Shown: positions 11,227 to 27,593, numbered from the stretch's first letter. The stretch is DNA of 64,000 bases from an uncultured Gemmatimonadales bacterium (GCA_963850905.1 CAWKMU010000003.1:2752001-2816000), one strand, 5' to 3'. The notes: generated by a model from the letters alone, not told the origin. Made by a program: numbers and translations.

Positions 11227-12458
11227 TGGCTTTCGGCGAACTGGATGAAGAGACCGCCTTCCGACACGACGCGGTCACCAGCCGCGAGCCCCTGCGTAAC
11301 TTCGTATTCGTCGCCAACGCGCGAGCCAAGCGTGATGGATCGACGGTCGTATCCTCCATCCGCTTGGGCGAGGAAGACGAAGGGAAGGTCTTCCTCGTCG
11401 CGTAAGACCGAGGAGACCGGCGCAAGGATGCCCTGCCGCGGCTTTGCTGCCTCGATGGCGACACGCACGTACATGTCGCGCTTGAGGAGCTCGTGCTTGT
11501 TCTGCACGACGACGCGGACGGACGTTGCGCGCGTCGCCGTATCCACGATCGCCGCCACGTAGTCCACTCGCCCACGCAGCGTGTCCGGCCACGCGTCGGT
11601 CGTGATCCACGCCGGCTCGCCCCGCGAGACGTCGGCGAGGTTCGATTCGAACACGTTGGCCATGACCCACATGCTCGAGAGGTCGGCGATCGTAAATGCC
11701 TGCGTCTGCCCGGCCTGCACGACCTCGCCGGGGTTGATGAGCTTCTCCACCACGACTCCGGCTATGGGCGCACGGATGACGCCAGGCGCGGGCGGCGACG
11801 GCCGCCCTTCGCGGATCGCGTCGATCGTCGACGAGTCCACCCCAAAAGCCACCATTTGCTCGATCGCCGCCTCGCGATCGGCCCAGGCCGACGCGGAGTC
11901 GGATCGTGCCTGATCCAGGTCGCTGCGCGCGATCGCATCGTTCTTGAAGAGCTGCTCGTCGAGCAGCGCGATGCGCGTGGTGTTGCGGAGCGCGGTTTGC
12001 GCCTTCTGAAACGCCGCCATCGCCTGGGCAAAGTCAGGCGACGTCACGCGGGCCAGAGCTGTCCCTGGCTGCACACGCGTGCCCGTCGTGACCAGGATCT
12101 GCGCGACGGGACCGGAGATCTGTGTCAGCACCGGCGTCGACCGGTCGCCGTCAAACGCGGCGGTCCCCGTCGTGATGATGGTGGGCCGGTAGGTTGACGG
12201 CGTGATCGTGACGGTGTGAATGCGCGCGCGCTGTTCCTCGGTCAGGAAAAAAGCGGAGTGCGCCGGTGTCGCTGAGGGCGAGCTGGCCGCGCTACCCCCC
12301 GCGGCGTCGCCCCCCTGCGTCGTCGCCGCCGACCGCGAGCAGGCTCCGGCGGCTACGGTCGTCCCTAGTAACGCCAGTGCACACCGGCGCCACATACCCG
12401 CGCGGCCTGCTGTGGATGTGTCGTGTCGTCTTCGTAAACTGGCAGCCCTAGTGGGCAT
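11223..12458 (-). CDS. RND periplasmic adaptor (CzcB-like membrane fusion protein)
   Basis: IRAPIAGVV, IADLSSMWVMANVFE, DTATR; lipobox; overlaps the RND gene start. Confidence 0.92.
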   Translation of the reverse strand: MPTRAASLRRRHDTSTAGRAGMWRRCALALLGTTVAAGACSRSAATTQGGDAAGGSAASSPSATPAHSAFFLTEEQRARIHTVTITPSTYRPTIITTGTAAFDGDRSTPVLTQISGPVAQILVTTGTRVQPGTALARVTSPDFAQAMAAFQKAQTALRNTTRIALLDEQLFKNDAIARSDLDQARSDSASAWADREAAIEQMVAFGVDSSTIDAIREGRPSPPAPGVIRAPIAGVVVEKLINPGEVVQAGQTQAFTIADLSSMWVMANVFESNLADVSRGEPAWITTDAWPDTLRGRVDYVAAIVDTATRATSVRVVVQNKHELLKRDMYVRVAIEAAKPRQGILAPVSSVLRDEEDLPFVFLAQADGGYDRRSITLGSRVGDEYEVTQGLAAGDRVVSEGGLFIQFAESQ

Positions 12459-13905
12459 TGTTGGCTCCCGATCGGAAGTCTGACAACGGCGCCGCCGCCG
12501 CACGCGCCAGGTCGGCCTGCGCGGCGTTCGCGGCGGCCAATGCATCGGTATACTGGCTCTCGGCCGATACGAGATCCGTGCGCGCCTGGATCACGTCGAG
12601 CGCGGACGATCCGCCAATCGCATAACTGGCGGCCGCGATCCGGTACTCCTCCCGCGCCCCCGGCACGACCTGGTCGCGCAGGTAGAGCAGCTGCTGGAGG
12701 GTCGTCGCGGCCGTCGCGTAGCTGACACGAACATCCTGATCGACCTCCGCGCGCAAGTCTCGGTACGACGCGGCCAGCTCGGCCTCGTGATGCCGCGCCT
12801 GGGCGAGATCACCCGATGTGTGCTGGAAGAAGAACACAGGCAACGGCACACTCAAGCCGTACTGCCAATAAACGTTCTGGTTCGGGATGTACGCGTCCGG
12901 TGCACCAAAATCTTTGCTGATGGCGAAAAACAGGTCCGGGATCCAGTACTCGGCCGCGAGCACCGTCGACGCATGCGCCCCCGACTGCTGCGCCTGCAGA
13001 CCGGCGAGCTCGGGACGATTGGCGAGTGCATGCGCCTCCAACGGCGCGAGGTCGGGGAGCGCCGGCGGCACGCCCAGAGTGTCGGCCGGCATGAGCGGAG
13101 TGGGCAACGCCCGCCCGAGCAGGCGATTGAGGGACGCGCGGGCATTCGCGATCGCGAGGCCATTCGCGAGGAGCGAGTTGCCAGCCTGGCCGACGGCCAC
13201 CTGTGCACGCACGACATCGAGCTTCGCCGCGGTGCCGGCCGCATACCGTGCCTGAGTCTTGGTCAGGAAGTCCGCCGCTAGCCCGTAGCTATCGGTCAGG
13301 TCTGTGCGGTGTCGCAAAGCTACGCGCATCGAGTCGTACGTTTGCGCCGTCTGTGATTCGATTTGTTGTCTGAGCGCCTTGTAGGCGTACTCGGCGCTTC
13401 GAACCCCGGCCGTTCCGATATTGTATTGAAGCCGAAACTTGTCCGGGAATGGGACGGTCAAGGAGGCCGAGAGCGGTTTGTACGCCGGAGCACCGGCTTG
13501 GGTCGTGATCGACGCCGAACCGATTGGGTCCGGAATGGCGACATCCTGCACTCGCTGGGCGCGGGCTTCCGCCGTCTGCTGGCGAGCGACCTCCAGTTGT
13601 GGATTGTGCGCCAGCGCCTCGGCAACCGCTTGCTCCCTCGTCAACCGTACGGTGTCTCGCGCGACGGTGTCCATTTGCCGGACACCAGCCATCGCCTCGC
13701 GTGCGGCGCGGTCGGGACTGAGTTCTCGCACCATGTTGGAGGTGTCGGCCAGGTTGGGCAGCAGGGGGTAACGGAGTCCGAGCCCAGTCCGGGTTGAATC
13801 GCGGTGCGCGCCAGTATCGGCCGCTTGGCCGGGTGTCGTGGGCTGCTGGCCACGGGCCGCTGATGGGACAACAGCCAGTGCGCACCACACAACGTAGAGC
13901 CGCAT
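12448..13905 (-). CDS. TolC/CzcC family outer membrane factor
   Basis: Signal peptide; AVAEALAHNP, ARYAAG...LDVVRAQ, YAIGGSSALDVIQA OEP repeats. Confidence 0.9.
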   Translation of the reverse strand: MRLYVVWCALAVVPSAARGQQPTTPGQAADTGAHRDSTRTGLGLRYPLLPNLADTSNMVRELSPDRAAREAMAGVRQMDTVARDTVRLTREQAVAEALAHNPQLEVARQQTAEARAQRVQDVAIPDPIGSASITTQAGAPAYKPLSASLTVPFPDKFRLQYNIGTAGVRSAEYAYKALRQQIESQTAQTYDSMRVALRHRTDLTDSYGLAADFLTKTQARYAAGTAAKLDVVRAQVAVGQAGNSLLANGLAIANARASLNRLLGRALPTPLMPADTLGVPPALPDLAPLEAHALANRPELAGLQAQQSGAHASTVLAAEYWIPDLFFAISKDFGAPDAYIPNQNVYWQYGLSVPLPVFFFQHTSGDLAQARHHEAELAASYRDLRAEVDQDVRVSYATAATTLQQLLYLRDQVVPGAREEYRIAAASYAIGGSSALDVIQARTDLVSAESQYTDALAAANAAQADLARAAAAPLSDFRSGANNAH

Positions 13906-14177
13906 GATCCCGGTGTGGAGGGAGAAGGGACGACCGTGGCGCACGCCCGCTCGCGCGGGCGACGCGAAAATATGGCCCCCGCCGCCTACAAAGAGCGACA
14001 GATACCTGACTTTGGAGCTGGGCCGGCCGGCCCCCGGATCGAGGGCGACGGGCGCGCCGCTAGACGGGCGCGGCAAACCGGGGCGGTCGATGGCAGGCAC
14101 GCACAACGCTCTATACGCACCAGACCGGGCAGACGCTTGGACATCCCTCGTATATATCTCTAAAGGGGGAACGGGTC

Positions 14178-14717: not shown

Positions 14718-14875
14718 CCGCGGCGCGGGGCATGCCCGAAAAGAGGGAGAGCTAAGAGGAATCAAGACGTACCATACCCGGCGAACTGCGGATGGTGCCC
14801 GGGTCTCTCTCTTGTTCCCGATCTCAATTCGGTCGTCTCGGGCGCGAGGCGCCCGAACGTGTTAGAGTCTACGCC

Positions 14876-15889
14876 ATGAATCTGCGGCCAGGTGGCCGGT
14901 GGACGAGTCCGAGCCGGATACTCCGCCAGGGCGCCCAAGCACTCCGAGTACTCATCTGGATGGTCGCGGCGATCACGGCCTGCGGCGACCACCGCGACGC
15001 GAGCGTGCCCGCGGCTGCGACGCCCGAGTCGGGGGGCCCGGCCAGCAGCGGCAAGCGGATCGGCGTGACCCTGCTGACCAAGGAGCAGGAGTTCTACCGG
15101 CAGCTCGAGGGTGGCCTTCGACGCGAGGCTGCGGCCAATGGGTATCAGCTGCTGGTAACCTCCGGCGACTTCGATCTCGCCCGGCAGCAGGCCGAGATCG
15201 ACAACTTCATTGTCCAGCGGGTCGACGCGATTGTGGTCTGTCCGGTGGACTCAAAAGGGATCGGGCCGGCGATCGAACGCGCCAAGGCAGCCGGGATTCC
15301 CGTGTTCACGGCGGATATCCGCGCCTACGGCGTGTCGGTGGTGGCACACGTCGCCTCCGACAACCGCGAGGGGGGCCGCGAGGCTGCAGCATTCATGGCG
15401 CAGGCGATCGGTCAACGCGGCACCGTTGGCATCATCGGCCAGGCCGAAACCGAGACGGGCTATGAGCGAGCGCACGCGTTCACCGACGCCATGGCATCCT
15501 ATCCCAATATCCACGTGGTCGGAGAGCTCAACGGTGGGGGTGTACGCGATCGCGCCCTCAAAGTCGCCGAAGACATGCTCCAGGCGCATCCCAACCTCAC
15601 GGGCATCTTCGCGATCAACGATGAGATGGCGCTCGGCGCACTGTCGGCGGCCCAGGCGCGCGGCAAGACACCCGATGACTTCACTATCGTGGGTTACGAT
15701 GCCGACCCCGAGGCGGTCACCGCGATCCGCGGACATACGCCGCTCAAGGCGGACATCGTGCAGCATCCCGATCGCATCGGCGTGGGGACCATCGACGCGA
15801 TTTCGCGTTACTTCGCCCACCAGGCAGTCGATTCCCTGATCACGATCCCGGTCGTGACCTTCGACGGACGTTCGGAGCCGACCAGCTGA
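14876..15889 (+). CDS. Sugar ABC transporter substrate-binding lipoprotein (RbsB-like)
   Basis: Lipobox AITAC; VDAIVVCP, VASDN, FAINDEMALGA, GYD motifs. Confidence 0.92.
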   Translation: MNLRPGGRWTSPSRILRQGAQALRVLIWMVAAITACGDHRDASVPAAATPESGGPASSGKRIGVTLLTKEQEFYRQLEGGLRREAAANGYQLLVTSGDFDLARQQAEIDNFIVQRVDAIVVCPVDSKGIGPAIERAKAAGIPVFTADIRAYGVSVVAHVASDNREGGREAAAFMAQAIGQRGTVGIIGQAETETGYERAHAFTDAMASYPNIHVVGELNGGGVRDRALKVAEDMLQAHPNLTGIFAINDEMALGALSAAQARGKTPDDFTIVGYDADPEAVTAIRGHTPLKADIVQHPDRIGVGTIDAISRYFAHQAVDSLITIPVVTFDGRSEPTS

Positions 15890-15899
15890 AGGTGCCGCT

Positions 15900-17438
15900 G
15901 TGAACGCCTCGGATCGCGCGGCGCATGGCAACACGATATTGAGCGCCTCCGGCGTTTCGGTTCGATTCGGGACGGTGGCAGCTTTGACTGAGGTCGATTT
16001 CAGCGTACGCGCGGGAGTTGTCCACGCCCTCGTCGGCGAGAACGGCGCCGGGAAGTCGACGCTCATGCGAGTCTTGTCAGGCGCCATCCATCCTGACCGT
16101 GGCGCGCTGGCATTGGACGGTACTCCCGTCTTCTTCGCATCACCCCGCGATGCGCGCCGCGCTGGCGTTCGGATGATTCACCAGGAATTGAGTTTGGTTC
16201 CCGCGCTGTCGGTTGCAGAGAACATCTTCCTCGGAGTCGAGCCATCAACCTGCGGCGTGGTGCGGCGGGATCGGATGCGGGGGGACGCGCACGCGGTCCT
16301 GTCGGTGCTCGGAGAAGCGATCGATCCCGACGCACGGGTCGGCATGCTTTCGCTCGCCCGGCGCGAGATGGTGGAGATTGCCAGGGCGCTCGCGGCGGCG
16401 CTCAGGATTCTCATACTCGACGAGCCGACGGCCATCCTCTCGGCGCGGGAGACGGACGCCCTCTTCGCGCAGATTGCCAGGCTCAAGGAGTCAGGCGTCG
16501 GTGTCGTGTATTGCTCTCATCGGCTTGATGAGATCGCGTTGCTCGCTGACGAGATCACGGTGTTGCGAGATGGTGTCCGCGTGGCGCATGGCCCTGCACG
16601 AGCCATGTCGCGCGACGAGATGATCCGCCTCATGGTGGGCCGCACCCTGCAGACGCGCGCGCCCGTTCCTGACGCGCGCGCGACAGCAGTCACCGCCGCT
16701 CCTGATGTCTTGCGGGTCGTCGGGCTCGATACGCCGGTCGTGCATGATGCATCCGTCGCGATTCGCGGTGGGGAGATCGTGGCGCTGGTCGGACTCGTTG
16801 GCGCGGGTCGCACGGAGCTCGCGCGAGCGATCGTGGGGGCGGACCGCCGCCACGGCGGGCAGATCCTGGTCGATGGTCGGGCGGTGGCCCCCCGGACGCC
16901 CGGGGAAGCGATGCGAGCCGGCATCGCATATGTGAGCGAGGATCGCAAGGCGGGCGCGCTCATCCCCCTGGCCTCCGTGTGCCACAACATCACGCTCGCC
17001 CGCCTGCGGTCATTCGCGCGCGGTCGCCTCGTGCCGGTCCTGGACCGAACGCGCGAGCGAACGGCGGCGGGGACATGGGTCGCTGCGCTGCGGATCAAGG
17101 TCCGGGACCTCGACCAACCCGTCGACCGTCTCTCGGGCGGGAACCAGCAGAAAATCGTGCTGGCCCGCTGGCTCATGGAGGAGGGCCCACCGCTCCGCGT
17201 GCTCATCGTTGACGAACCGACGCGGGGCGTCGATGCCGGTGCACGGGAAGAGATTCACTCCGTACTGCGTGGCCTGGCGGCTCGCGGCACGGCAGTCCTC
17301 GCGATCACCTCCGATCTCGAGGAAGCATTTGCGTTGAGTGACCGACTGCTCGTGATGCGCGAGGGGCACATCACCGGCACGCTCGCGACACGTGACGCAA
17401 CGGCGACGGACGTGGCCGCGCTCATGGTTCCGGCGTAG
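15900..17438 (+). CDS. Sugar ABC transporter ATP-binding protein (RbsA-like, two NBDs)
   Basis: GENGAGKST, LDEPT, LSGGNQQK, DEPTRGVD. Confidence 0.95.
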   Translation: MNASDRAAHGNTILSASGVSVRFGTVAALTEVDFSVRAGVVHALVGENGAGKSTLMRVLSGAIHPDRGALALDGTPVFFASPRDARRAGVRMIHQELSLVPALSVAENIFLGVEPSTCGVVRRDRMRGDAHAVLSVLGEAIDPDARVGMLSLARREMVEIARALAAALRILILDEPTAILSARETDALFAQIARLKESGVGVVYCSHRLDEIALLADEITVLRDGVRVAHGPARAMSRDEMIRLMVGRTLQTRAPVPDARATAVTAAPDVLRVVGLDTPVVHDASVAIRGGEIVALVGLVGAGRTELARAIVGADRRHGGQILVDGRAVAPRTPGEAMRAGIAYVSEDRKAGALIPLASVCHNITLARLRSFARGRLVPVLDRTRERTAAGTWVAALRIKVRDLDQPVDRLSGGNQQKIVLARWLMEEGPPLRVLIVDEPTRGVDAGAREEIHSVLRGLAARGTAVLAITSDLEEAFALSDRLLVMREGHITGTLATRDATATDVAALMVPA

Positions 17439-17443
17439 GTCCG

Positions 17444-18322
17444 ATGACCGGCTTCCTCTCCGCGTTCTTCTCGGTCGCAAACCTCATTAACGTCGCGCTG
17501 TCGATTGCCGTGATCGCCATCCTCGGCGTCGGCATGACCGCCGTCATCATCACGGGCGGGATCGATCTCGCCGTGGGCTCCGCCGTGGCGCTCGTCGGAA
17601 TCGTCAGCGCCGTAGCGGCGCACGCGCCATCGGCGGGGTGGGCTGCGGGCGCTGCTGTGCTGGCGGTGCTCGCGGGCCTGGCGACCGGAGCGGTGAGTGG
17701 CGCGGTGACGGGCGCGCTGGTGGCACACCTTCGCGTGCCGGCGTTTCTGGCGACGCTCGCGCTCTTGTCGATCGATCGCGGGCTCGCGTTTGTCGTCGGT
17801 GGAGGCCGTTCGATCGGCGACCTGCCGCCGGGACTCCTCGTACTGGGGCAACGCAACTGGCTTGGACTGCCAATCCCCGTGTGGCTCATGGCCGCAGCGG
17901 TCGGCGGGGGCTGGTTCGTGCTGACCCGCACGGTCTGGGGTCGTTGGGTCTACGCCGTTGGTGGCAACGAGGAGGCGACCTGGCTCGCGGGGATTGATAC
18001 TCGGGCAGTCGTGTTCTGGACCTATGTCGCAAATGGTTTGATTGTCGGTGTTGCCGGTTTGGTATTGACCGCGCGACTCGGGGCCGCCGTGCCCAACGCC
18101 GGCCTGGGGTACGAGCTCGATGTCATTGCAGCCGTTGTTGTCGGCGGGACCGCACTCACCGGGGGCCGCGGCTCGGTGCTCGGCACGCTGGCGGGCGCGG
18201 TCTTCATCGGTGTGCTCAACAACGCCCTCAATCTCGCGGATGTCGACCCGTACCTCCAACGCATCGCCGTAGGCGTCGTCATTCTTGCTGCCGTCCTCGC
18301 CGATCGACTCCGCCCACGATGA
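17444..18322 (+). CDS. Sugar ABC transporter permease (RbsC-like)
   Basis: GGIDLAVGS, YAVGGNEEA, YELDVIAAVVVGG. Confidence 0.94.
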   Translation: MTGFLSAFFSVANLINVALSIAVIAILGVGMTAVIITGGIDLAVGSAVALVGIVSAVAAHAPSAGWAAGAAVLAVLAGLATGAVSGAVTGALVAHLRVPAFLATLALLSIDRGLAFVVGGGRSIGDLPPGLLVLGQRNWLGLPIPVWLMAAAVGGGWFVLTRTVWGRWVYAVGGNEEATWLAGIDTRAVVFWTYVANGLIVGVAGLVLTARLGAAVPNAGLGYELDVIAAVVVGGTALTGGRGSVLGTLAGAVFIGVLNNALNLADVDPYLQRIAVGVVILAAVLADRLRPR

Positions 18323-19284
18323 CGGCGAGCGACCCGCGGGACACGATCATCGGCATCAATGTCGGTGGGACGAAGACGAGCGTCGTCGAAGGTGCTCGCA
18401 ATGGACAGATCCTCATGCGCAGTGAGCGCCCGACCGAGGCCGCGGTCCGATTTGCCGACACGTGGCCCGCGCTCGCCAAACAGATCAGTGACACGATTAC
18501 GCGGTCGCAACAAATGGGACGCCGGCCCACGGCGATCAGCGTCGCGGTCGGCGGTCCCCTCAATGCGCGGGATGGCCGCCTGATCGACCCTCCGAATCTC
18601 CCTGGATGGCACAACGTCGCGCTTGCGGACCATCTGAAGGAGCGGTTCTCGGGGCTGGCTGTTCATGTGGAACATGATGCCAAGGCCGGCGCGGCCGCCG
18701 AGCTCCGGTTCGGTGTGGGCGCCACCCGGCCATGGCTGACCGACATGGTGTTTCTCACGTTCGGGACTGGTCTCGGAGCGGGCATCATCGCCGCGGGCCG
18801 CCTGCTGCGTGGCGGGCACGAGATGGCGGGTGAGCTGTGGGGTCTCGCTGTCCACGCGCCCGATGGCGCCAAGGTCCAGGAGATCAATGGTTGGGAGAGT
18901 GCGGCATCCGGTCGAGGCATCTCCGAGCTGGCAGTGCGGCTCCATCCCTCCCGGTGGCCTGGAGGCACTGAGACGCGCGAAATCGTGGATGCGGCCCTTG
19001 CGGACGACGTCGACGCGCTCGACGTCGTGGTGGAATGTGGGCAATGGCTGGGTGCCGGGATCGCGGCGCTCATCAGCATTCTCGATCCACAACTGGTTGT
19101 CGTTGGGAGTCTCGCGGTCGCGCTCGGCGATCGAGTGCTGGATCCGGCGCGTGCCGAGGTCGCAGCACGTCTTCCGTCACGAAGCAATGCCAGCCGGGCG
19201 ATCCTTCCCAGCGCGCTCGGCACTCGCCTCGGTGACGTTCAGTCTCTGATGGCCGCGATCGAAGCCGAGTCCACGGCGGCATAG
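18319..19284 (+). CDS. ROK family protein (sugar kinase-like, atypical motifs)
   Basis: GINVGGTK, PPNLPGW, FLTFGTGLGAG, AGE; no HTH domain. Confidence 0.88.
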   Translation: MTASDPRDTIIGINVGGTKTSVVEGARNGQILMRSERPTEAAVRFADTWPALAKQISDTITRSQQMGRRPTAISVAVGGPLNARDGRLIDPPNLPGWHNVALADHLKERFSGLAVHVEHDAKAGAAAELRFGVGATRPWLTDMVFLTFGTGLGAGIIAAGRLLRGGHEMAGELWGLAVHAPDGAKVQEINGWESAASGRGISELAVRLHPSRWPGGTETREIVDAALADDVDALDVVVECGQWLGAGIAALISILDPQLVVVGSLAVALGDRVLDPARAEVAARLPSRSNASRAILPSALGTRLGDVQSLMAAIEAESTAA

Positions 19285-20573
19285 CCCTCACCGCCGCGCA
19301 GCACCGCAGTCGCGACCGAGCGGATCTCTCGGTCCGGTCGGACGGCCGCCCACGCGACTGCCGCCACGAGGCAGAGGCCCGCCGCAGTAAAGAACGACGC
19401 TGACCACCCGAAATGGTCGCCGATCCACGGCGTCAAGATCGTGGTGGTGAAGCCGCCGATCTGCGCACCCATGTTCATCACGCCCGAGACTGCCCCTGCC
19501 GACGGGCCGGCAATGTCGGCGCTCGCCGACCAGAACGAGCTCTGTGCGAGGTATAACGTGCCCGCCCCGCCTGCGAGGATCACCGCCGCGAGCCGCGCGT
19601 CGACGATCGTCGGCCCGATGGCGATGAAGACGGCGGCCACTGTGACAGCTGCGGACGCAAACAGGCAGCGTCCGACTCGGGGTCCGAAGCGTTGTGTCAG
19701 CCGATCGTTGATCCAGCCCCCACAACTCGAGCCAAGCGCCATCCCAAGCCCGGGGAGCATCGCGTATCGCGCCGTCGCGTGGAGGTCGAGATGGCGTAAC
19801 GTGCTCAGATAGGTGAAGAACCAGTTGAAGAAGATGTAGGCTGAGTAGCCGTAGCAGAAATACGCGAGGGTGAGCAGCGCCACGTCGCGATTCAGCAGAA
19901 TGTCCCGCCACGGCAGTGGTGCGGTCGCGACGCTCGCCGACACCCCGTCGCGGATGAGTGCGCGCTCGGTGGGCGAAACTCGTGCGCTCTCATCCGGCGT
20001 GTCCCGGGCGACCACGAACCACGCAGCCCCCACGAGGAGTCCGAGCACGCCGCACACCGGAAACGACGCGCGCCAGCCATACCGTAGCATGACCTTGGTC
20101 ACAAGCGGGGCGGCGACTGCCGTCCCGATCCCGACCCCAGTGAAGATGATCCCGGTGGCGACGCCGCGTTCGCGAACGGGAATCCATCGCGCTACGACAC
20201 GGTTTGAGGCCGGATACATCGTGGCCTCGCCGACGCCGAGTGTGAAGCGGATCGCCAGGAACAGCCCTAATGCCAGCGATCCAACGGGCACAGCAGCAGA
20301 GAGGCTACTGAATACCGCCCACCACACTGCCGCGAGGGCGAGCGTGCGTCGCGGCCCGAGGACGTCGGCGACTCGGCCCGCCGGCGCCTGACAGAGCGCG
20401 TACCCAGCTGTGAAGGCGCCGAGAATCCAGGACAGTTGCTGGCGACTCAGTCCATAGTCGTGCGCCAGCGTGCTGCCGGCGACCGACATGTTGACGCGGT
20501 CAAGGTACGAAATCGCGCTCAGCAGAAACAGCCAGCCGATCAGCTGCCACCGCACCTGGCTCGAACCGCTCAT
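19239..20573 (-). CDS. MFS transporter, ACS (sugar-acid) family
   Basis: ISYLDRVNMS, GVGEA..YP, WIPVRERG motifs; highly hydrophobic. Confidence 0.9.
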   Translation of the reverse strand: MSGSSQVRWQLIGWLFLLSAISYLDRVNMSVAGSTLAHDYGLSRQQLSWILGAFTAGYALCQAPAGRVADVLGPRRTLALAAVWWAVFSSLSAAVPVGSLALGLFLAIRFTLGVGEATMYPASNRVVARWIPVRERGVATGIIFTGVGIGTAVAAPLVTKVMLRYGWRASFPVCGVLGLLVGAAWFVVARDTPDESARVSPTERALIRDGVSASVATAPLPWRDILLNRDVALLTLAYFCYGYSAYIFFNWFFTYLSTLRHLDLHATARYAMLPGLGMALGSSCGGWINDRLTQRFGPRVGRCLFASAAVTVAAVFIAIGPTIVDARLAAVILAGGAGTLYLAQSSFWSASADIAGPSAGAVSGVMNMGAQIGGFTTTILTPWIGDHFGWSASFFTAAGLCLVAAVAWAAVRPDREIRSVATAVLRGGEGYAAVDSASIAAIRD

Positions 20574-20612
20574 CCGCACCCCGCTTGGCTCCAGAATCGT
20601 TCAACCTCTCGA

Positions 20613-20661
20613 GCGTCCAACGTCTAACGTCCAACGTCTCACGTCCAGCGTCTGGCGTCCA
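20613..20661. repeat. Heptamer tandem array (RCGTCYN) x7
   Basis: gcgtcca acgtcta acgtcca acgtctc acgtcca gcgtctg gcgtcca. Confidence 0.85.
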
Positions 20662-20765
20662 GCCTTGCCTCGCGAACCTGGGAGAGTCACCTTGCAGGCG
20701 CTCCGTCCGGCACCGGTGTCCCACGCAACGTGACGTCGAGCGTCCCCCTGCTTCCGGAGGCGTGT

Positions 20766-21224
20766 ATGCGCTGTGGTCCGTCGTTGGTTCGGTGGTTGCC
20801 CGCGGTCGCCCTGTTGGGCGTTGTGAGTGCGGGGACCGCGCAGGCTCAGGAACGCCGTGTCTTCAATCCGCCAGGGGCGCCAACGAACCTGCCGTTCAGC
20901 AATGGAATCCAGGTCGGCAACACGCTGTACATTGCGGGGGTGCAGGGCACGGTCTCGAGCGATATCGAGGCGGAGACGCGGGCCGCGCTCGCGGCCATCA
21001 AGAAGGTGCTCGACGCAGCCGGGTTCAAGCCGAGCGATGTCGTGCAGGTGACGGTGTATTTGAAGGACATCAGTGACTTCCCGAAGATGAACGCTGCCTA
21101 CCGAGAGTTCTTCCCCGATCCCAAGCCGACGCGGACGACGGTCGAGGTCGCGCGCCTGGTCAACAATGCCCACATCGAAATCACGTCCGTAGCGGTCCGC
21201 TCATCTGGAGGATCGGCGCAGTGA
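20766..21224 (+). CDS. RidA/YjgF family protein with N-terminal signal peptide
   Basis: Sec-type leader ...VALLGVVSAGTAQA|Q; PFS, LYIAG, MNAAY..FF..PKPTRT, IEI motifs. Confidence 0.9.
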   Translation: MRCGPSLVRWLPAVALLGVVSAGTAQAQERRVFNPPGAPTNLPFSNGIQVGNTLYIAGVQGTVSSDIEAETRAALAAIKKVLDAAGFKPSDVVQVTVYLKDISDFPKMNAAYREFFPDPKPTRTTVEVARLVNNAHIEITSVAVRSSGGSAQ

Positions 21225-22540
21225 CAACCCGTCGCGACTTTGTGAAGCGATCAGTGGCCGCCAGCGCGCTCGTTGGACTCAACCCCGCTGCCGCCGCCGC
21301 GGCGACTGCACGCGGGGATATCGAGCCGCCATCGGCACCGATCGATTACTACGACAAGCTGGGCGTCACCAAGATCATCAACGCTGCCGGGACCTACACG
21401 TATCTGACAGCGTCGATCATGCCCAAGCAGGTCCAGGATGCCATCACGGTCGCGAGCCGACACAATGTCCGTCTGGCCGAGCTCCAGGCTGCGGCCGGCG
21501 CTTACATCGCCAAGCGCCTGCAATGCGAGGCAGCGCTGGTGAGCGCGGGCGCGGCGTCCGCCTTGTCCCTCGGCGCCGCGGGCTGCATGACCGTCGGCAA
21601 TGCGGACGGCCCGCGAGATGTGCCGATCCGCACGAGCGGCTTCAAGAACGAGTTCATCATCCAGAAAGCGCACCGTTTCCCGCACGAGCACGGTCTGGAG
21701 ATGGCCGGGATGAAGCTGATCGAGGTCGAGACTCTCGACGACTACGAACGTGCATTTACCCCGCGGACCGGCGTCGCGTTCTTCTTCAACGCGGCGGAAG
21801 TCGGGCACGGCGCATTGCAGCAGGGGGTCAAAGGCTGGTCCAACGCGCCGGTCACCTCGATCTCACGCGAGGACTGGATCCGCGTCGCGCATGAGCACAA
21901 CGTCCCGACCTTCCTCAATGCCGCCGCGGATGTGCCGCCCATCTCGAACCTTTGGAATTACACCAAGATGGGGTTCGACCTGGTCACGTTCTCAGGCGGC
22001 AAGGGCATTCGGGGTCCACAGAACGCCGGACTGCTCCTCGGCCGCAAAGACCTGATCGTGGCTGCGGCGGCGAACGATTGTCCCAACGACCGGTCCATTG
22101 GCCGCGGGATGAAAGTCGCCAAGGAGCAAATCGTCGGGATGGTGGCGGCGCTGGATTGGTTCCTCGACCAAACCGACGAGGGGCTCGAGGCGGAGGGGCG
22201 GAGGCGTAGCGCGGTGATCGCGGCTGCGCTACGATCGCTGCCGACCGTGACGACGGAAATCTTCATCCCGCCGATCGCCAACCGCGTTCCGCACCTGATG
22301 ATTCGCTACGACCAGACTCGGATTGCCATCAAGCCCGTCAATGTCGCCGATGCGCTGCGCAAGGGCACGCCGTCGATCGAGCTCAATCCGGGGACCGGGC
22401 ACGAGCGCGGTGCCGCCGGCCTCATCTCGGATGCGAATACCATCGTGATTGGCCCGTGGATGATGAACCCAGGCGAGGACGCGATCGTCGGGCGCAGGCT
22501 GCACGAGGTCCTGAAGGCGGCGCTGCAGCCGCAGGCGTGA
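21221..22540 (+). CDS. SelA-like / DgaE family PLP-dependent enzyme with Tat signal
   Basis: TRRDFVK Tat motif; IINAAGTYT, FSGGK (PLP Lys), GRGMKVAKE. Confidence 0.88.
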   Translation: MTTRRDFVKRSVAASALVGLNPAAAAAATARGDIEPPSAPIDYYDKLGVTKIINAAGTYTYLTASIMPKQVQDAITVASRHNVRLAELQAAAGAYIAKRLQCEAALVSAGAASALSLGAAGCMTVGNADGPRDVPIRTSGFKNEFIIQKAHRFPHEHGLEMAGMKLIEVETLDDYERAFTPRTGVAFFFNAAEVGHGALQQGVKGWSNAPVTSISREDWIRVAHEHNVPTFLNAAADVPPISNLWNYTKMGFDLVTFSGGKGIRGPQNAGLLLGRKDLIVAAAANDCPNDRSIGRGMKVAKEQIVGMVAALDWFLDQTDEGLEAEGRRRSAVIAAALRSLPTVTTEIFIPPIANRVPHLMIRYDQTRIAIKPVNVADALRKGTPSIELNPGTGHERGAAGLISDANTIVIGPWMMNPGEDAIVGRRLHEVLKAALQPQA

Positions 22541-22550
22541 ACTGCGGGGC

Positions 22551-22720
22551 CAGGGGTGAGGGGTCAGGGGACGATAACGGCAACCGCAAGCAATCCACGC
22601 CGACATGTAGGCGCGGCCTTCAGGCCGCCCACCGCCCATGCCCCGACCCGTCATCCTTTTTGCGGTTTGGCGTTGCCGTTCCCCGACTCCTGACCCCTGG
22701 CCCCTGACCCCTGACCCCGC
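22551..22720. repeat. Nested intergenic element: inverted GGGGTCA/TGACCCC heptamer arrays around a GTAG-type REP hairpin at 22607
   Basis: caggggtgaggggtcagggg ... gtaggcgcggccttcaggccgccc ... cctgacccctggcccctgacccctgacccc. Confidence 0.75.
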
Positions 22721-22725
22721 TCCGT

Positions 22726-24096
22726 TCAGCTCCCCCCGGCGCTTGCCGTCTTACCACCTGCTCCGCCCAACCCATACAGCCCCGCCGCGTTCCCCCGCAT
22801 GACCATCACCGCGATCTCTCTCGCGCGCGCGGGTGTCACGGTGCCGTCGCGGATCATCCCGGTGAGCGCGATCGCGAGGGCGCGCCGCGCCGTGCGCGTT
22901 GCCACCCAGCCCTGGTCACCCCACCCGACCGGATCGCTATTGTGGTCGGCGAAGGCGTCGCTGCCGTAGAGCACCTTTCCCGGGAATTCCTCCAACCAGC
23001 GACGGAGCACGGCCGCCAGCGTCTCCGGCGAGAGGATCTGCGTCATCGCCGAGATATCGGCGTAGACGTTTGGCTTCTCGAAAACGGCGAGCGTCTGATC
23101 CCAGTAGGGCCATCCACCGTGCAGCAGCACGAAGCGTGTTTGCCGGAGCGTCGAGTCGTCGAAGACTGATTCCAGCTGCAGCGGCTGAGAGCCCGCGGCT
23201 GGGTAGTAGCCACCGAAGAAGCCGAGGCAGTGAATGTGCACCACCTCGCCGCGCGCGCCGGCCTCGCGCGCGATCGTGCGGAAGAGATAGTCCTCCAGCG
23301 TCGTGTACTCGGCGTGTGTCGGCACGCCGCCGTGGACGTAGCGGGCGTAGATCGCCGCGGCGGAATCGTGCGGCGGATTGCCGAACGCCAGCGGTCGCAA
23401 GTACGCGATCTCGAACTTGTACGCGACAGCGCCATCGCGCTTCATGCGGTCGAGCGTCGGGGTGAGGACCGTCGTCAGGTACTCATCGAGCGTGCCTGGC
23501 AGCGCTGAGACCTGCAGGTCACGCAGGTACCTGCGCAGCACGCGGGCTTCGCGCGGATACAAGACGCGATCGTCCGGCGTCATCGCCGCCTCTCCGGACA
23601 CGTCCAGCGGAAAGAGCAGGGCGTCGACGAACGAAACCCATCGAAATCGCGGCGGTTGCAGCCCACGCCCCATGACGACGCGGTTCGCGAGCATCGTTTC
23701 GGTGCCCATGCGGTCGAGGGCCCAGTTGGCGAGCTGGTCGCCCTCCTTGCTGGCCAGCGCGGCCTTGGCTTGCACGAGCTCGCGCACGTGCGCGTCCGTC
23801 ATGTCGCTGTACCGGTATCCATACAGCGCATGCCACGGCACAACCCAGCGAGGGTTCGCTGGGTCGAGACCGTACGGCATCGGAAAGTCGGGAATGCCCG
23901 CCAACGGCAGCGCGTCGTTGTCCGTGTCCGCGGGCACTCCGGCCTCCGGCGGCAGCAGCGGGTGTGCGTGATTGTCGATCGCCTTGATGCCGTTGATGTA
24001 TGCCAGCAACGACGAGTCGACCGCGGACTGCGCGTGCACCGGCCGACTCGCCAGAGCCGCGGTCACGAGAGCATAACGAAGAGATGCGCACGGCAA
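22726..24096 (-). CDS. Exported amidohydrolase-family metalloenzyme
   Basis: Signal peptide; DNHAH, HIH, LLHGG, LYGSD metal-binding motifs. Confidence 0.88.
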   Translation of the reverse strand: MPCASLRYALVTAALASRPVHAQSAVDSSLLAYINGIKAIDNHAHPLLPPEAGVPADTDNDALPLAGIPDFPMPYGLDPANPRWVVPWHALYGYRYSDMTDAHVRELVQAKAALASKEGDQLANWALDRMGTETMLANRVVMGRGLQPPRFRWVSFVDALLFPLDVSGEAAMTPDDRVLYPREARVLRRYLRDLQVSALPGTLDEYLTTVLTPTLDRMKRDGAVAYKFEIAYLRPLAFGNPPHDSAAAIYARYVHGGVPTHAEYTTLEDYLFRTIAREAGARGEVVHIHCLGFFGGYYPAAGSQPLQLESVFDDSTLRQTRFVLLHGGWPYWDQTLAVFEKPNVYADISAMTQILSPETLAAVLRRWLEEFPGKVLYGSDAFADHNSDPVGWGDQGWVATRTARRALAIALTGMIRDGTVTPARAREIAVMVMRGNAAGLYGLGGAGGKTASAGGS

Positions 24097-24154
24097 CCTC
24101 TTCGGATGGACAGCGTAGAATGTAGAGCTAGACGATAGACAACGACACCGACAT

Positions 24155-24178
24155 GTGGGGGCGGGCTTCAGCCCGCCC
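24155..24178 (+). repeat. REP-like hairpin GTGGGGGCGGGCTTCAGCCCGCCC
   Basis: GT(A/G)G tetranucleotide plus palindrome; preceded by ccgacat, as is the 22607 copy. Confidence 0.6.
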
Positions 24179-24192
24179 GTTCGTGCCGTGCC

Positions 24193-24807
24193 TCAGAGGC
24201 TCGCCAGTTCGGCCAGCATCGCGCGCGCTCGTGAGCCGACAGCCGCGGCGCGATCGCCGGGGCGGTAGAGGGAGGATCCGATGCCGAACCCCGCAGCGCC
24301 GACTGCGACCCACGGTGCCATTGTACCGAGTCCGACGCCACCCACCGGAAGCACGAGCGTGCCAGCTGGTAGGACGGCGCGCAAGGCCTTGAGCGTCGCG
24401 GGAGTCGTGGCTTCGGCCGGAAAGAGCTTGAGCGCATCGGCCCCGGCCGCGAGCACCGCAAAGGCTTCGGTAGGGGTGAAGAATCCAGGCATGGCCAGCG
24501 CATCGGCGGCTTTTGTTGCGCGTACGACATCCACGGCGGCATGCGGGCTCACAATGAGCTTGCCGCCGGCCGCCACGACTTCGCGTACCTCCTGGACGCG
24601 CATCACCGTGCCGGCCCCTATGAGGGCGCGATCACCAAACGCGGACTGCAACCGTTCGATGCTTACGTAAGGCTCTGGCGAGTTGAGTGGCACTTCTATG
24701 ATCACGACGCCGGCATCGACCAACGCGCTTCCGACTGCGACGGCGTCGTCGGGAGTCAGGCCGCGCAGGACCGCCACGATACGGCAGCGGTCGAGCCACG
24801 CTTTCAT
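24193..24807 (-). CDS. dgoA: 2-dehydro-3-deoxy-6-phosphogalactonate aldolase
   Basis: VAVLRG, IEVPLNSP, GAGTV, LKLFPAE, PVGG; ATGA overlap with dgoK. Confidence 0.92.
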   Translation of the reverse strand: MKAWLDRCRIVAVLRGLTPDDAVAVGSALVDAGVVIIEVPLNSPEPYVSIERLQSAFGDRALIGAGTVMRVQEVREVVAAGGKLIVSPHAAVDVVRATKAADALAMPGFFTPTEAFAVLAAGADALKLFPAEATTPATLKALRAVLPAGTLVLPVGGVGLGTMAPWVAVGAAGFGIGSSLYRPGDRAAAVGSRARAMLAELASL

Positions 24808-25670
24808 GTCCACTGCGCACACTCCGCGATCTGGTTGATGCCGATGGCGGCCGTCTCATCACCCCAGACCCGGGAAAAACCGCCGCACGCCTGGATCGCG
24901 CGCGCGTACAGTTTCGTCAGGTCGGAGGCCCCGACGACATGAATCTCGCTTCCGACCGCCACCGCCTGTCGCACTTCGTGCCCGATGAGAAGACCGGACA
25001 GGTACGATCCTGCGCTCGTCTCCGGCAACCGGCCGACGAGCCCCAAACCGCGGATGCCGAAAAGGTGGTGGAGCACCCCGCCAGGATCCGCTGACCGGGC
25101 GACGCCGGCGTCGAACGCGGACTGCACGGCCGGACCGTCGGCGATCGACCGGGCGAGGATGGTGTGCGCGCGAAGCGCCGCGAATGCTTCGCCCGTGAGG
25201 AAGGTCGAGAACGTCACGATGCGCCCGCCGGTGACCTGGACCCACTTGCTGTGGCTCCCCGGCATACAGATCACACCGCTCTTGATGTCGGTGCCGAAAA
25301 CCTGCGCCTCCTCGCCGCGAATGAACTCCGGCACGCCGTTCTGGTCGGCACTGGAGATGCCGGGGACCACGCGGACCGCTGCGCCGTCGAATGGCACTGC
25401 GACCAGCTTCCCCGCGAGGTCGCGAGGCGCCACGGGGCAGGGGACGTACCCAGTCTCGACCCAACCGCCGCGGCTGCCGATCATCCCGGAGAGCAGCACG
25501 CGACCCTCACCTTTGGCCAGCCACGATCCCACGAGGTCGCGTAATGTCGACGCGAACCGGCTTCGATCGATGTGGAGAATCCCCGCGGGCGCGGCGCGAC
25601 GGTCGACGACGGTCCCGCCCTGCACGCGGTACGCCCGGCAGTTGGTGGTCCCCCAATCAACGGCGATCAC
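24804..25670 (-). CDS. dgoK: 2-dehydro-3-deoxygalactonokinase
   Basis: VDWGTT, GMIGSRGGW, RGEE, PGSHSKW, TGE, YLSGLLIGHE. Confidence 0.94.
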   Translation of the reverse strand: MIAVDWGTTNCRAYRVQGGTVVDRRAAPAGILHIDRSRFASTLRDLVGSWLAKGEGRVLLSGMIGSRGGWVETGYVPCPVAPRDLAGKLVAVPFDGAAVRVVPGISSADQNGVPEFIRGEEAQVFGTDIKSGVICMPGSHSKWVQVTGGRIVTFSTFLTGEAFAALRAHTILARSIADGPAVQSAFDAGVARSADPGGVLHHLFGIRGLGLVGRLPETSAGSYLSGLLIGHEVRQAVAVGSEIHVVGASDLTKLYARAIQACGGFSRVWGDETAAIGINQIAECAQWT

Positions 25671-25676
25671 AGCCCG

Positions 25677-26054
25677 TCACGTCGTCCGCTGGGCGGCGAT
25701 GCAGTCGATCTCGACCTCGACGCCGACCAGCTGGCAGCCGATTGTAGTACGAGCCGGCGGGTCGTTCGGAAAAAACTCCCGATAGACGTCGTTGTACTCC
25801 TTGAAGCGGCTCACGTCGCTGAGATACCCGTTGACCTTGACCGCATCGGAGAGCTCGAGACCCACGCCGCGCAGGATCCGCTCGACGTTCCGGATCACCA
25901 GCCGCACCTGATCGGCAAAGGAGGCTGGCACCGCTCCCGTCACCGGATCGCGCGGCACCTGTCCGGATACGTAGACCGCGCCATTCGCGATGACGGCGTG
26001 CGAGTAGTGCCCGCCGGGTTTGGCGGCCTCCTTCACCATGACGGCTGTGCGCAT
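25677..26054 (-). CDS. RidA family enamine/imine deaminase (cytoplasmic)
   Basis: GHYSHA, VSGQ, PPARTT, VEID; lies directly upstream of dgoK. Confidence 0.92.
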   Translation of the reverse strand: MRTAVMVKEAAKPGGHYSHAVIANGAVYVSGQVPRDPVTGAVPASFADQVRLVIRNVERILRGVGLELSDAVKVNGYLSDVSRFKEYNDVYREFFPNDPPARTTIGCQLVGVEVEIDCIAAQRTT

Positions 26055-26195
26055 GCGATGCCTTCCTCGAGGGTTGGGGCTCTGACGCGGGTCCCGCTGG
26101 TCGAACGGCGTCACCAACGATAACGTTGGGCCGGTCGCTGAGCGACCGGCTAGTCGGCGCCCGTAGGCGTCTCTCCTCCATTCCATGGATTGTCG

Positions 26196-27593
26196 ATGAC
26201 AGCCAACACGGCGTTGAGCAGTGCGGAACCCAGCTCCGAGCGCAAGCCTAAAGAGCTGGCACGAGTACTTGGCTTGGGAAACCTGATCTTCATCGTCGTT
26301 GGTACAGTCATTGGCTCCGGCGTTTTCCTGGTACCGGGCGCGGTGCTGCGACAGGTCGACGCCAGGGCAGGCGTAGGGATGGGCATCTGGGTGGTCGGCG
26401 GGGTGCTCTCACTGCTGGGCGCACTCACGTGTGGCGAGTTGGGTGCTATGATGCCCGAAGCGGGCGGTCTGTACGTCTACATTCGCGACGCATTCGGACC
26501 GTTCCTCGCATTCCTGTACGGGTGGGCACAGTTCACCGTGATCGCCAGCGGCTCTATTGCAACGCTCGCGGTAGCGGCACGGGTGTATCTCGGTGCCCTC
26601 GTGCCACTGACTCCCGTGATGGACAAGCTGGTACCGATTGTCGTCATTGCTGTCTTCGCCGCGATCAACGTCTGGGGCACACGAAAGAGCGCCCGCGTGC
26701 TCGGATTGGGGACATCGATCAAGGCTGGTGCGATCGTGATCATGGCGATCCTGCTCTTCGCTGCAGGGCACGTGCAAGTGACCGCCGCGCCGGCGGCGAC
26801 CATCAATCACGTGTCAGGACTTGGTCTGCTCGGTGGTGCGGGCCTGGCCCTTGTCGCCACGTTGTGGGCCTACGAAGGGTGGCAGTACGTGACATTTTCG
26901 GCGGGCGAGACTCGCGACCCGCAGCGCATCTTCCCGCTCGGCATCGTGGTGGGCACGGCATGCGTGGTCGTGCTCTACCTGCTCGCAAATCTTGCCTACG
27001 TGCACGCGCTGGGTCCCGCGGCCGTGGCGACGTCGGACCGTGTGGCCGCGGACGCGATGACTGCTGCCTACGGCCCGGCAGCCGGTTTGGTGATGGTCGT
27101 GATTGTCGAGGTGTCGGTCTGTAGTGCGATGAACGGCGTCATCCTCACTGCGCCGCGTGTGTACTACGCAATGGCCCGCGATGGGGTGTTCTTCCAACGA
27201 CTCGCCGACGTGCATCCGCGGTTCGGCACCCCGGCGTTCGCGATCATTTCGAGTGCCACTTGGGCGATGGTCCTGGCCATGAGCGGCACGTACGCGCAGC
27301 TCTTCACGTACGTGATCGGGACGGGGTGGGCATTCTACGGGGCAGCCGCGCTCACGATTTTCTGGTACCGACGGCATCGACCGGATGCCGTGCGCCCGTT
27401 TCGCGTTCCCGGTTACCCCTGGACGCCCGCGCTCTTCGTGCTCGCCGCTCTGGGTGTGGTCCTCGACGTCATCGTGAAGCAGCCTACCGATGCCGCGAAG
27501 GGTCTGGGAATCGTGCTCCTCGGAGCCCCGGTCTACCTGATTTGGCGGGGGCGGGGAAGAAAACGGGCGGGTGAGAGGACGTCCAACGTCTAA
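26196..27593 (+). CDS. APC family amino acid permease
   Basis: GTVIGSGVF, ELGAMMPEAGG, WAYEGW, RPFRVPGYP. Confidence 0.94.
   Translation: MTANTALSSAEPSSERKPKELARVLGLGNLIFIVVGTVIGSGVFLVPGAVLRQVDARAGVGMGIWVVGGVLSLLGALTCGELGAMMPEAGGLYVYIRDAFGPFLAFLYGWAQFTVIASGSIATLAVAARVYLGALVPLTPVMDKLVPIVVIAVFAAINVWGTRKSARVLGLGTSIKAGAIVIMAILLFAAGHVQVTAAPAATINHVSGLGLLGGAGLALVATLWAYEGWQYVTFSAGETRDPQRIFPLGIVVGTACVVVLYLLANLAYVHALGPAAVATSDRVAADAMTAAYGPAAGLVMVVIVEVSVCSAMNGVILTAPRVYYAMARDGVFFQRLADVHPRFGTPAFAIISSATWAMVLAMSGTYAQLFTYVIGTGWAFYGAAALTIFWYRRHRPDAVRPFRVPGYPWTPALFVLAALGVVLDVIVKQPTDAAKGLGIVLLGAPVYLIWRGRGRKRAGERTSNV

Follow-up and report, generated by a model that had tools for sequence, protein, structure and literature searches.

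The closest known pathway to the one considered here is the Ong pathway of Pseudoalteromonas prydzensis (OngB, OngC, OngD and KdgK), in which N-acetylglucosaminate (GlcNAc1A) is deacetylated and deaminated without phosphorylation (PMC9537276). The route is cytoplasmic, its deaminase belongs to fold type III of the pyridoxal 5'-phosphate (PLP) enzymes, and a RidA-family gene of unknown role is required (PMC9537276). In DgaE, the phosphate of the substrate is held at Arg301, Arg332 and Arg346 and the carboxylate lies near Arg226; His163 is strictly conserved in DgaE/DGL, and the H163A mutant sets the free enamine loose (PMC9529869). A DgaE-homologue route via a phosphorylated intermediate has been predicted in haloarchaea (PMC12343721). 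The same fold can also perform O2 chemistry, as in Cap15, an O2- and PLP-dependent monooxygenase-decarboxylase (PMC7497351), and PLP is named among the cofactors shown to be carried by substrates of the twin-arginine translocation (Tat) system (PMC13673990). This work deals with a stretch of 64,000 nucleotides from an uncultured Gemmatimonadales bacterium (GCA_963850905.1 CAWKMU010000003.1:2752001-2816000), called here the window, and with a PLP enzyme encoded in it beside a sugar-acid transporter of the major facilitator superfamily (MFS), two Rid proteins and the dgoK and dgoA genes. The window lies on contig C3 (4.49 Mb) of genome G000, which is 82% complete.

Taken together, gene content and conserved residues suggest that the PLP enzyme is probably a periplasmic amino-aldonate ammonia-lyase of galacto, gluco or manno specificity. 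The narrower proposal, a galactosaminate ammonia-lyase in the periplasm whose product would be imported by the MFS protein and consumed by DgoK and DgoA, is given about an even chance. In the literature searched, by listings and the opening lines of abstracts and with most subscription journals outside its coverage, neither an exported version of such a pathway nor a galactosaminate lyase was described, so that the pathway is apparently undescribed; the chemistry itself has precedent.

A predicted structure of the enzyme (predicted local distance difference test score, pLDDT, 86) was compared with the structures of the Protein Data Bank (PDB). The model and the alignments show a SelA-like protein of fold type I with its PLP lysine. 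The best structural match was Cap15 (8T7J; Z 38.6, root mean square deviation 1.9 over 348 residues, 26% identity), also the leading phmmer match and the closest solved structure, followed closely by DgaE (7LC0; Z 36.8, 24% identity) and, in third place, by SelA structures (Z ~24). Against the DgaE profiles the enzyme scored 144.5 bits (TIGR01437, cut-off 385.3) and 105.8 bits (NF047797, cut-off 600), and against the SelA profile TIGR00474 it reached 31.9 bits (cut-off 267.9). Selenocysteine synthase, the common database name of these proteins, is rejected on this last score and is a mis-transfer. DgaE membership is likewise rejected, since its cut-offs are missed and the residues His162/163 and the Arg triad are replaced.

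For this comparison, DgaE residue numbers were taken from PDB alignments and mapped through a Lacticaseibacillus DgaE-family protein. The PLP lysine is K261 and Arg226 corresponds to R275, His162/163 are replaced by A192/E193, and Arg301/332/346 by H358/N389/W413 (MAFFT, sequence alignment only). As the phosphate-binding triad is lost, the substrate is probably unphosphorylated. As His163 is missing, the enzyme would release its enamine and need outside help, and the enamine release of the H163A mutant of DgaE agrees with the Rid partner found here. Of the 91 alignment rows with at least 50% identity, a number in which one genome may count repeatedly, every one (91/91) keeps the PLP lysine, no row has His at the 162/163 columns or Arg at the triad columns (0/91), and a Trp is invariant at the former phosphate pocket; the RR motif is present in 90 of these rows and in 52 of the 105 other rows. 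In a FastTree phylogeny, with SH-like supports only, the 91 rows form one clade (support 100) separate from a signal-less group that contains DgaE. At least 7,956 clusters (90% identity) were matched among 7,999 candidates, a count that takes in more distant relatives.

Cap15 standing ahead of DgaE counts against a lyase and gives some room to a different chemistry, namely an O2-dependent monooxygenase-decarboxylase that would turn a beta-hydroxy amino acid sugar into an amide shorter by one carbon, to be opened by an amidohydrolase. Cap15 likewise uses a beta-hydroxy-alpha-amino acid (PMC7497351), and amidohydrolases are frequent neighbours of the enzyme (25/80 loci). Such a pentonamide route is highly improbable, as it would yield no six-carbon 2-keto-3-deoxy acid for DgoK/DgoA and would leave the replacement of DgoD unexplained, while the Rid partners indicate an imine or enamine product and the identity to Cap15 is only 26%.

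Two observations on the family can be added. An insertion of 18-19 residues, of low confidence in the model, lies in the loop of DgaE His162/163 (window 21785-21860) and is shared by the closest relatives only. Besides, G000 encodes a second SelA/DgaE-like paralogue (L081, G000:C3:861130-862287), 33% identical, with an RR leader and an unrelated neighbourhood, whose group occurs in many more Gemmatimonadota genomes than the PLP enzyme.

The PLP enzyme is predicted to be exported by the Tat system, which would place it in the periplasm. It starts with T-R-R-D-F, about 40 residues precede the fold, and this leader lies outside the fold because residue 5 of DgaE aligns to residue 43 of the enzyme. 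Among the 120 listed homologues, window protein included, 109 carry an RR motif within their first 35 residues (108/119 relatives), and the other 11 start within the signal/leader or the mature domain. The motif reads TRRxF in 88 and SRRxF in 18 of the 109 motif-bearing N-termini, the remaining leader sequence being variable. TatC is encoded in G000. The Tat signal proposed by the sequence-only reading is conserved among the homologues. The same chemistry could instead take place in the cytoplasm, with a vestigial or uncleaved signal and with the MFS protein importing the amino-aldonate as OngIT does. This would fit h-regions that are only moderately hydrophobic (median 1.54 for the best 11-residue hydropathy of the 109 N-termini), cleavage sites that are unclear in some of them and a score of 12.8 bits with the Tat hidden Markov model TIGR01409 (cut-off 16.7), all of which tell against export, as well as the cytoplasmic Rid before dgoK and the existence of signal-less relatives. 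That model was tried on seven proteins and exceeded its cut-off in one, a Granulicella Rid; no match was obtained with four of the five further PLP and PIG-L sequences, nor with one additional sequence. A cytoplasmic location is nevertheless quite improbable, because [ST]RRxF is kept in 106/109 motif-bearing N-termini despite the variable leader, TatC is present and the partner enzymes bear leaders of two different export systems.

The link with DgoK and DgoA comes from 401 genomes of the phylum Gemmatimonadota. Matches of any strength to the PLP enzyme occur in 48 of them and a close orthologue (E below 1e-150, at least 62% identity; next best match 1e-52) in seven: G000, G083, G277, G333, G042, G147 and G189. 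DgoK exceeds its cut-off in nine genomes, which are these seven plus G250 and G282; the latter two have DgoD above its cut-off, in dgoK-dgoA-dgoD operons, and lack the PLP enzyme. In the seven enzyme genomes DgoD (NF010624) is below the cut-off or absent. Searches of the whole of G000, at its 82% completeness, found neither DgoD nor any member of the IlvD/Edd family (PF00920), none of the latter was found in G277, and for the IlvD/Edd matches of G083, G147 and G189 housekeeping IlvD is the best-scoring type. The core of the sequence-only reading holds in the checks proposed with it: dgoD, missing from the window, was not found elsewhere in G000 either, the enzyme co-occurs with dgoK in relatives (7/7), and the distribution of DgoD (missing in those seven, present in the two dgoK genomes without the enzyme) is the one expected if an ammonia-lyase replaces it. 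Fisher's test on 7/0/2/392 gives p ~1e-13, which is overstated because the seven genomes, being non-independent, fall in only three genera. A close MFS orthologue is found in eight of the 401 genomes, the seven and G338.

Genome G342, of the same genus as the window and 96% complete, has the exported Rid, the amidohydrolase, the second Rid, the APC permease and the M14 peptidase in window order, and jointly lacks the MFS, the PLP enzyme, dgoK and dgoA. Its gene content defines a four-gene core (MFS, enzyme, dgoK, dgoA) and shows that both Rids and the amidohydrolase can exist without it. In G042, G147 and G189 the MFS gene, the PLP gene and dgoK-dgoA stand together, with PLP-dgoK-dgoA in one run. 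Chance adjacency of two unrelated modules in this lineage, MFS-rid-PLP and APC-rid-dgoK-dgoA-amidohydrolase, would be consistent with their convergence in the window, with the REP-like (repetitive extragenic palindromic) repeats between them, and with G083 and G333, where dgoK-dgoA are on a contig separate from the PLP gene, a point that weakens the case for one pathway. It is the least probable of the explanations considered, given the single run in two other genera, the co-occurrence in 7/7 genomes and the joint loss of the core from G342. The arrangement at the APC permease of the window recurs in G083, in G333 and in G342, the last of which is without dgoKA. In G083 and G333 (L144, L145) ridA-dgoK-dgoA-amidohydrolase is followed by genes resembling those of hydroxyproline epimerase and DapA.

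Neighbourhoods of relatives of the PLP enzyme were sampled in 80 genome loci, 20 of them titled Gemmatimonadota, and in 80 metagenome loci (41 of at least 8 kb, 39 under 8 kb). Around the genome loci the recurrent genes encode Rid (37), MFS (26), cog3964-type amidohydrolase (25), quinoprotein (20), SGL lactonase (15), RraA (10), CBM9-like proteins (10), PIG-L (9), ROK (9), DgoK/DgoA (6), PfkB (6), DapA-like proteins (6) and the amidohydrolase type of the window (2), with no DgoD. The metagenome loci gave Rid 22, cog3964-type 17, MFS 9, PIG-L 9, lactonase 5, quinoprotein 5, PfkB 4, DapA-like 4 and dgoK 0, together with one match to the DgoD query (L248). Within the 20 Gemmatimonadota loci an MFS gene adjoins in 18 and a Rid in 11, and DgoK/DgoA, or a PfkB kinase and/or a DapA-like aldolase, adjoin the PLP gene in 13. 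That dgoK itself adjoins it in just 6 of the 80 genome loci speaks against the pathway. Judged by eye, the Rid, cog3964-type, RraA, PIG-L and lactonase proteins mostly have Sec or Tat leaders, and the DgoK, DgoA, PfkB and DapA-like proteins have no export leader. The neighbour quinoproteins score best as TIGR04528 (below its cut-off) or TIGR03075. No phosphotransferase system (PTS) or DgaF aldolase was found among the window genes or the recurrent neighbour clusters scanned; both are present in the control locus L120. A fold-type-III DSD1-like gene lies near the PLP gene in 1/80 genome loci.

In Acidobacteriota the clade adjoins genes for exported Rid, deacetylase-family proteins, lactonase, quinoprotein and RraA. 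The cultured acidobacterium Granulicella tundricola has an orthologue with 54% identity that belongs to an exported operon, in a run of TonB receptor, RraA, orthologue, Rid, second SelA-like paralogue, amidohydrolase/deacetylase and lactonase; an experimental test is therefore practical. TonB receptors, glycosidases and CBM9-like genes near the enzyme in relatives, the invariant Trp and a periplasmic location would also suit an amino-aldonate substituted at the 3-O position, either a glycan end that has been oxidised and deacetylated or a sugar acid of muramate type, from which the enzyme would expel the 3-O group and not water. As no glycosidase neighbour recurs across loci, this substrate has very little probability in our judgement.

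Several of these neighbourhoods hold further genes worth recording. In L035 a fold-type-III DSD1/BhcC-like gene (L035:1-555) stands upstream of dgoK-dgoA near the enzyme, and a similar gene stands alone at G000:C3:2024673-2025824. L002:6499-7797 and L049 hold a further copy of the enzyme, tandem or divergent, whose triad columns read T/D/W and which lies beside an ABC-ROK (ATP-binding cassette transporter and ROK) module; such a module adjoins the PLP gene in 8/80 genome and 4/80 metagenome loci, mostly of close relatives. L064:2596-4713 encodes an exported protein in which three Rid domains are fused to an SMP-30/gluconolactonase domain; genes for a quinoprotein, the PLP enzyme and a PIG-L protein lie downstream of it. 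Seven acidobacterial loci (L013, L015, L020, L021, L025, L038 and L119) contain two SelA-like paralogues from different clades, perhaps for two substrates or two steps; the second is often ~530-550 residues long, and the clusters also include exported RraA and cog3964-type amidohydrolase.

Regarding the epimer, the best PDB match of DgoA is the Escherichia coli 2-keto-3-deoxy-6-phosphogalactonate (KDPGal) aldolase 2V81. The pairs V154/T161 and I12/V20 are the stereo sites of KDPGal and 2-keto-3-deoxy-6-phosphogluconate (KDPG) aldolases (PMC4915726). The window DgoA has Val at the V154/T161 site, like the E. coli enzyme and the canonical Gemmatimonadota copies; among ten other distinct aligned DgoAs, two canonical ones included, nine have Val there and that of L035 has Met. 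An elimination like that of DgaE would erase the stereochemistry of C2 and C3, so that C4 decides the epimer. Val at V154 therefore speaks for 2-keto-3-deoxygalactonate (KDGal) and, on this residue, the galacto configuration is favoured, with galactosaminate as the natural amino-aldonate, as had been suggested from the sequence alone. Galactosaminate is also a substrate of some classical glucosaminate dehydratases.

The same periplasmic lyase could act on D-glucosaminate or mannosaminate derived from the sugars of chitin or peptidoglycan and give 2-keto-3-deoxygluconate (KDG), with DgoK/DgoA working on the gluco epimer. DgaE and OngC use forms of glucosaminate, the window DgoA has Val at the I12 site, and the PfkB neighbours find their best NCBIfam match, under its cut-off, in the bifunctional KDG/KDGal kinase, so that other members of the clade may serve the gluco epimer; haloarchaeal chitinase clusters, moreover, contain DgaE homologues (PMC12343721). 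For the window this is rather unlikely, since its DgoA exceeds the NF006600 cut-off and, like 9/10 others, carries Val at the main stereo site, and no AA10 lytic polysaccharide monooxygenase (LPMO) was found in a search of G000 (82% complete). The supply of the substrate is the weakest step of the proposed pathway. Outside the window, G000 encodes pqqC, two SGL lactonases and several quinoproteins, of which one shares 58% identity with a neighbour in L035. Searched with the deacetylase queries of the relatives, in which cog3964-type (25/80) and PIG-L (9/80) genes flank the PLP gene in Acidobacteriota, G000 gave no full-length cog3964-type or PIG-L protein.

Both Rid proteins of the window keep the aligned active-site Arg, which we take to be the catalytic residue of RidA, and fall slightly below the TIGR00004 cut-off (87.8 and 95.6 vs 106.25 bits). 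The Sec signal attributed to the first of them on sequence alone is recognisable: GGAGG at 20756-20760 precedes an ATG at 20766, and the Sec-type leader has an AxA site at residue 27. The second, like DgoK and DgoA, aligns with its family from its first residues, and DgoK and DgoA have no signal peptide; in genus g1 it is a cytoplasmic Rid gene that stands before dgoK. Exported Rids also occur outside this locus. At another site G000 encodes a paralogue with 67% identity, likewise exported, and further Rids with Sec leaders are found in L082 (G000:C3:3499544-3500011) and L085 (C3:2947575-2948700), one beside a PALP-family PLP enzyme. The dedication of the window Rids to the pathway is uncertain because both persist in G342 in the absence of the PLP enzyme and dgoK; the exported one is likely a non-exclusive helper. 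As to the window amidohydrolase, it had no match in Pfam, NCBIfam or the PDB, and ESM Atlas clusters alone assign it to Amidohydro_2 (PF04909, 0.97). It occurs in 46/401 genomes, mostly lacking the PLP enzyme (six of the 46 are among the seven), adjoins the PLP gene in 2/80 genome loci and is kept in G342 where the pathway is absent. The role of de-acylase that the sequence-only reading had given it is rejected for these reasons.

Other observations weigh against the proposed pathway. The mapping of R332 and R346 comes from MAFFT and HMMER alignments, hhalign having lost the register in the C-terminal domain, and four residues from H358 stands R362, a conserved Arg. G333 carries one sugar-acid-type IlvD/Edd dehydratase, of two, that could feed DgoK; G338 holds the MFS and the exported Rid without the PLP enzyme or DgoK; and the dgoA of G042 looks truncated, matching residues 3-100 only. 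In the metagenome loci dgoK never adjoins the PLP gene (0/80), the acidobacterial loci are without DgoK, so that the epimer may differ across the clade, and pqqC was not found in searches of G147 and G189.

The proposed pathway would run as follows. A periplasmic quinoprotein dehydrogenase and a lactonase, with a deacetylase in addition for N-acetyl sugars, would make the amino-aldonate; genes for this step flank the enzyme in relatives and are sited elsewhere in G000. The exported PLP enzyme would then act on the unphosphorylated amino-aldonate, likely D-galactosaminate, by a DgaE-like beta-elimination of its C3 hydroxyl, the overall outcome being the removal of water and ammonia, and for want of His163 it would release the enamine. 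The exported Rid would hydrolyse this enamine or imine to the keto acid and ammonia, the ACS-like MFS protein would import 2-keto-3-deoxygalactonate, and DgoK and DgoA, by what is known of their families, would yield pyruvate and glyceraldehyde-3-phosphate. The PLP enzyme would stand in for DgoD. The core of the earlier interpretation, a periplasmic lyase feeding DgoK/DgoA, is supported by co-occurrence, signal and lost phosphate residues; the amidohydrolase as a part of it is not supported, and the dedication of the Rids is uncertain.

More tentatively, the widespread, mislabelled and Tat-exported clade may run an oxidative amino-sugar pathway outside the cytoplasm of soil Gemmatimonadota and Acidobacteriota. 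It would comprise quinoprotein oxidation, lactone opening, deacetylation and PLP-dependent deamination with an exported Rid, with aldol cleavage by exported RraA in Acidobacteriota. Ammonia would be set free in the periplasm, and this would be the first route to lead into DgoK/DgoA by way of a galactosaminate ammonia-lyase. A testable function is hereby offered for a large mis-annotated enzyme clade. If correct, abundant and poorly cultured soil phyla would mineralise amino-sugar nitrogen ahead of uptake, and a job so far known from cytoplasmic enzymes would be done outside the cytoplasm. Exported Rid proteins would gain a use, and the De Ley-Doudoroff pathway a new entry.

The genes of the locus, called from a listing of open reading frames and from scans of the window with NCBIfam and Pfam profiles, are collected in Table 1. 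All seven named from the sequence alone were found again in place and on the same strand, including the overlap within GTGA of the exported Rid stop and the GTG start of the PLP gene. An ATGA overlap joins dgoK and dgoA, and the APC permease is followed by an M14 peptidase gene. A promoter and terminator scan gave no signal exceeding shuffles. A hairpin-bearing, REP-like element of 34 nucleotides flanks the amidohydrolase gene in two copies 85% alike (22597-22630 and 24145-24178), the first enclosed by a longer inverted repeat (22546-22711); it has 86 blastn matches of at least 22 nucleotides across G000. Window 8044-14106 presumably encodes an efflux set of CusA/CzcA type (TolC-like, membrane fusion and RND pump proteins), judging from the appearance of the sequence.

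Table 1. Features of the window around the PLP enzyme (positions counted from the first nucleotide of the window).
Feature	Position	Strand	Evidence or description	Assessment
RbsB/A/C-like sugar ABC transporter + ROK kinase	14792..19284	+		possibly linked sugar-uptake module
ACS-like MFS transporter	19239..20579	-	TIGR00893 227 bits, under cut-off 395	core
Exported Rid-family deaminase	20766..21224	+	PF01042 over cut-off, Sec-type leader	likely helper, non-exclusive
SelA/DgaE/Cap15-fold PLP enzyme	21221..22540	+	predicted amino-aldonate ammonia-lyase	core
Predicted Tat signal peptide of PLP enzyme	21221..21310	+	TRRDF motif, modest h-region, AxA near residue 30	
Amidohydro_2-like hydrolase, exported	22726..24096	-	weaker Sec-type leader	probably passenger, outside core
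dgoA, KDPGal aldolase	24193..24807	-	NF006600 256 bits vs cut-off 207	core
dgoK, 2-keto-3-deoxygalactonate kinase family	24804..25670	-	PF05035 289 bits	core
Cytoplasmic Rid upstream of dgoK	25677..26054	-	PF01042 over cut-off	accessory
APC amino-acid permease	26190..27593	+	divergent from ridA-dgoK-dgoA	probably passenger

Compared with known systems, the locus shares with the De Ley-Doudoroff dgo operon (dgoK, dgoA, dgoD, dgoT) its DgoK and a DgoA of KDPGal type, whereas it lacks DgoD, whose place the PLP enzyme apparently takes, and the MFS protein, with 227 bits against a cut-off of 395, differs from DgoT, the canonical neighbour in G250 scoring 418. With DgaE the enzyme has in common the fold, the PLP lysine, the position of Arg226 and the proposed beta-elimination chemistry; in contrast, it lacks His162/163 and Arg301/332/346, has no PTS beside it, and adds an export signal and a Rid partner. 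Cap15 resembles it in fold and in its beta-hydroxy amino acid substrate (PMC7497351), but is a biosynthetic enzyme (capuramycin) with Arg at the three triad positions and no export signal in the aligned part, while the gene context here is catabolic. PvdN and PtaA of Pseudomonas are periplasmic PLP enzymes exported folded by Tat (PMC13673990), although they serve siderophore tailoring and not sugar-acid catabolism, and the sequence searches made here did not match them. As in the Ong pathway, a PLP enzyme is predicted, here from the genes, to remove the amino group of an unphosphorylated amino-aldonate and so to give a 2-keto-3-deoxy acid for a kinase and an aldolase, and a RidA-family gene is linked (Rid in 37/80 loci; kinase and/or aldolase in 13/20 Gemmatimonadota loci). 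OngC, as reported (PMC9537276), is of fold type III and acts in the cytoplasm of Gammaproteobacteria on LPMO products imported by an SSS-family transporter. The enzyme of the window, in turn, is of fold type I, bears a Tat signal, is predicted to act before MFS import and has DgoK/DgoA in place of KdgK, so that, if the proposal is right, it would be a case of the OngC reaction solved independently on fold type I.

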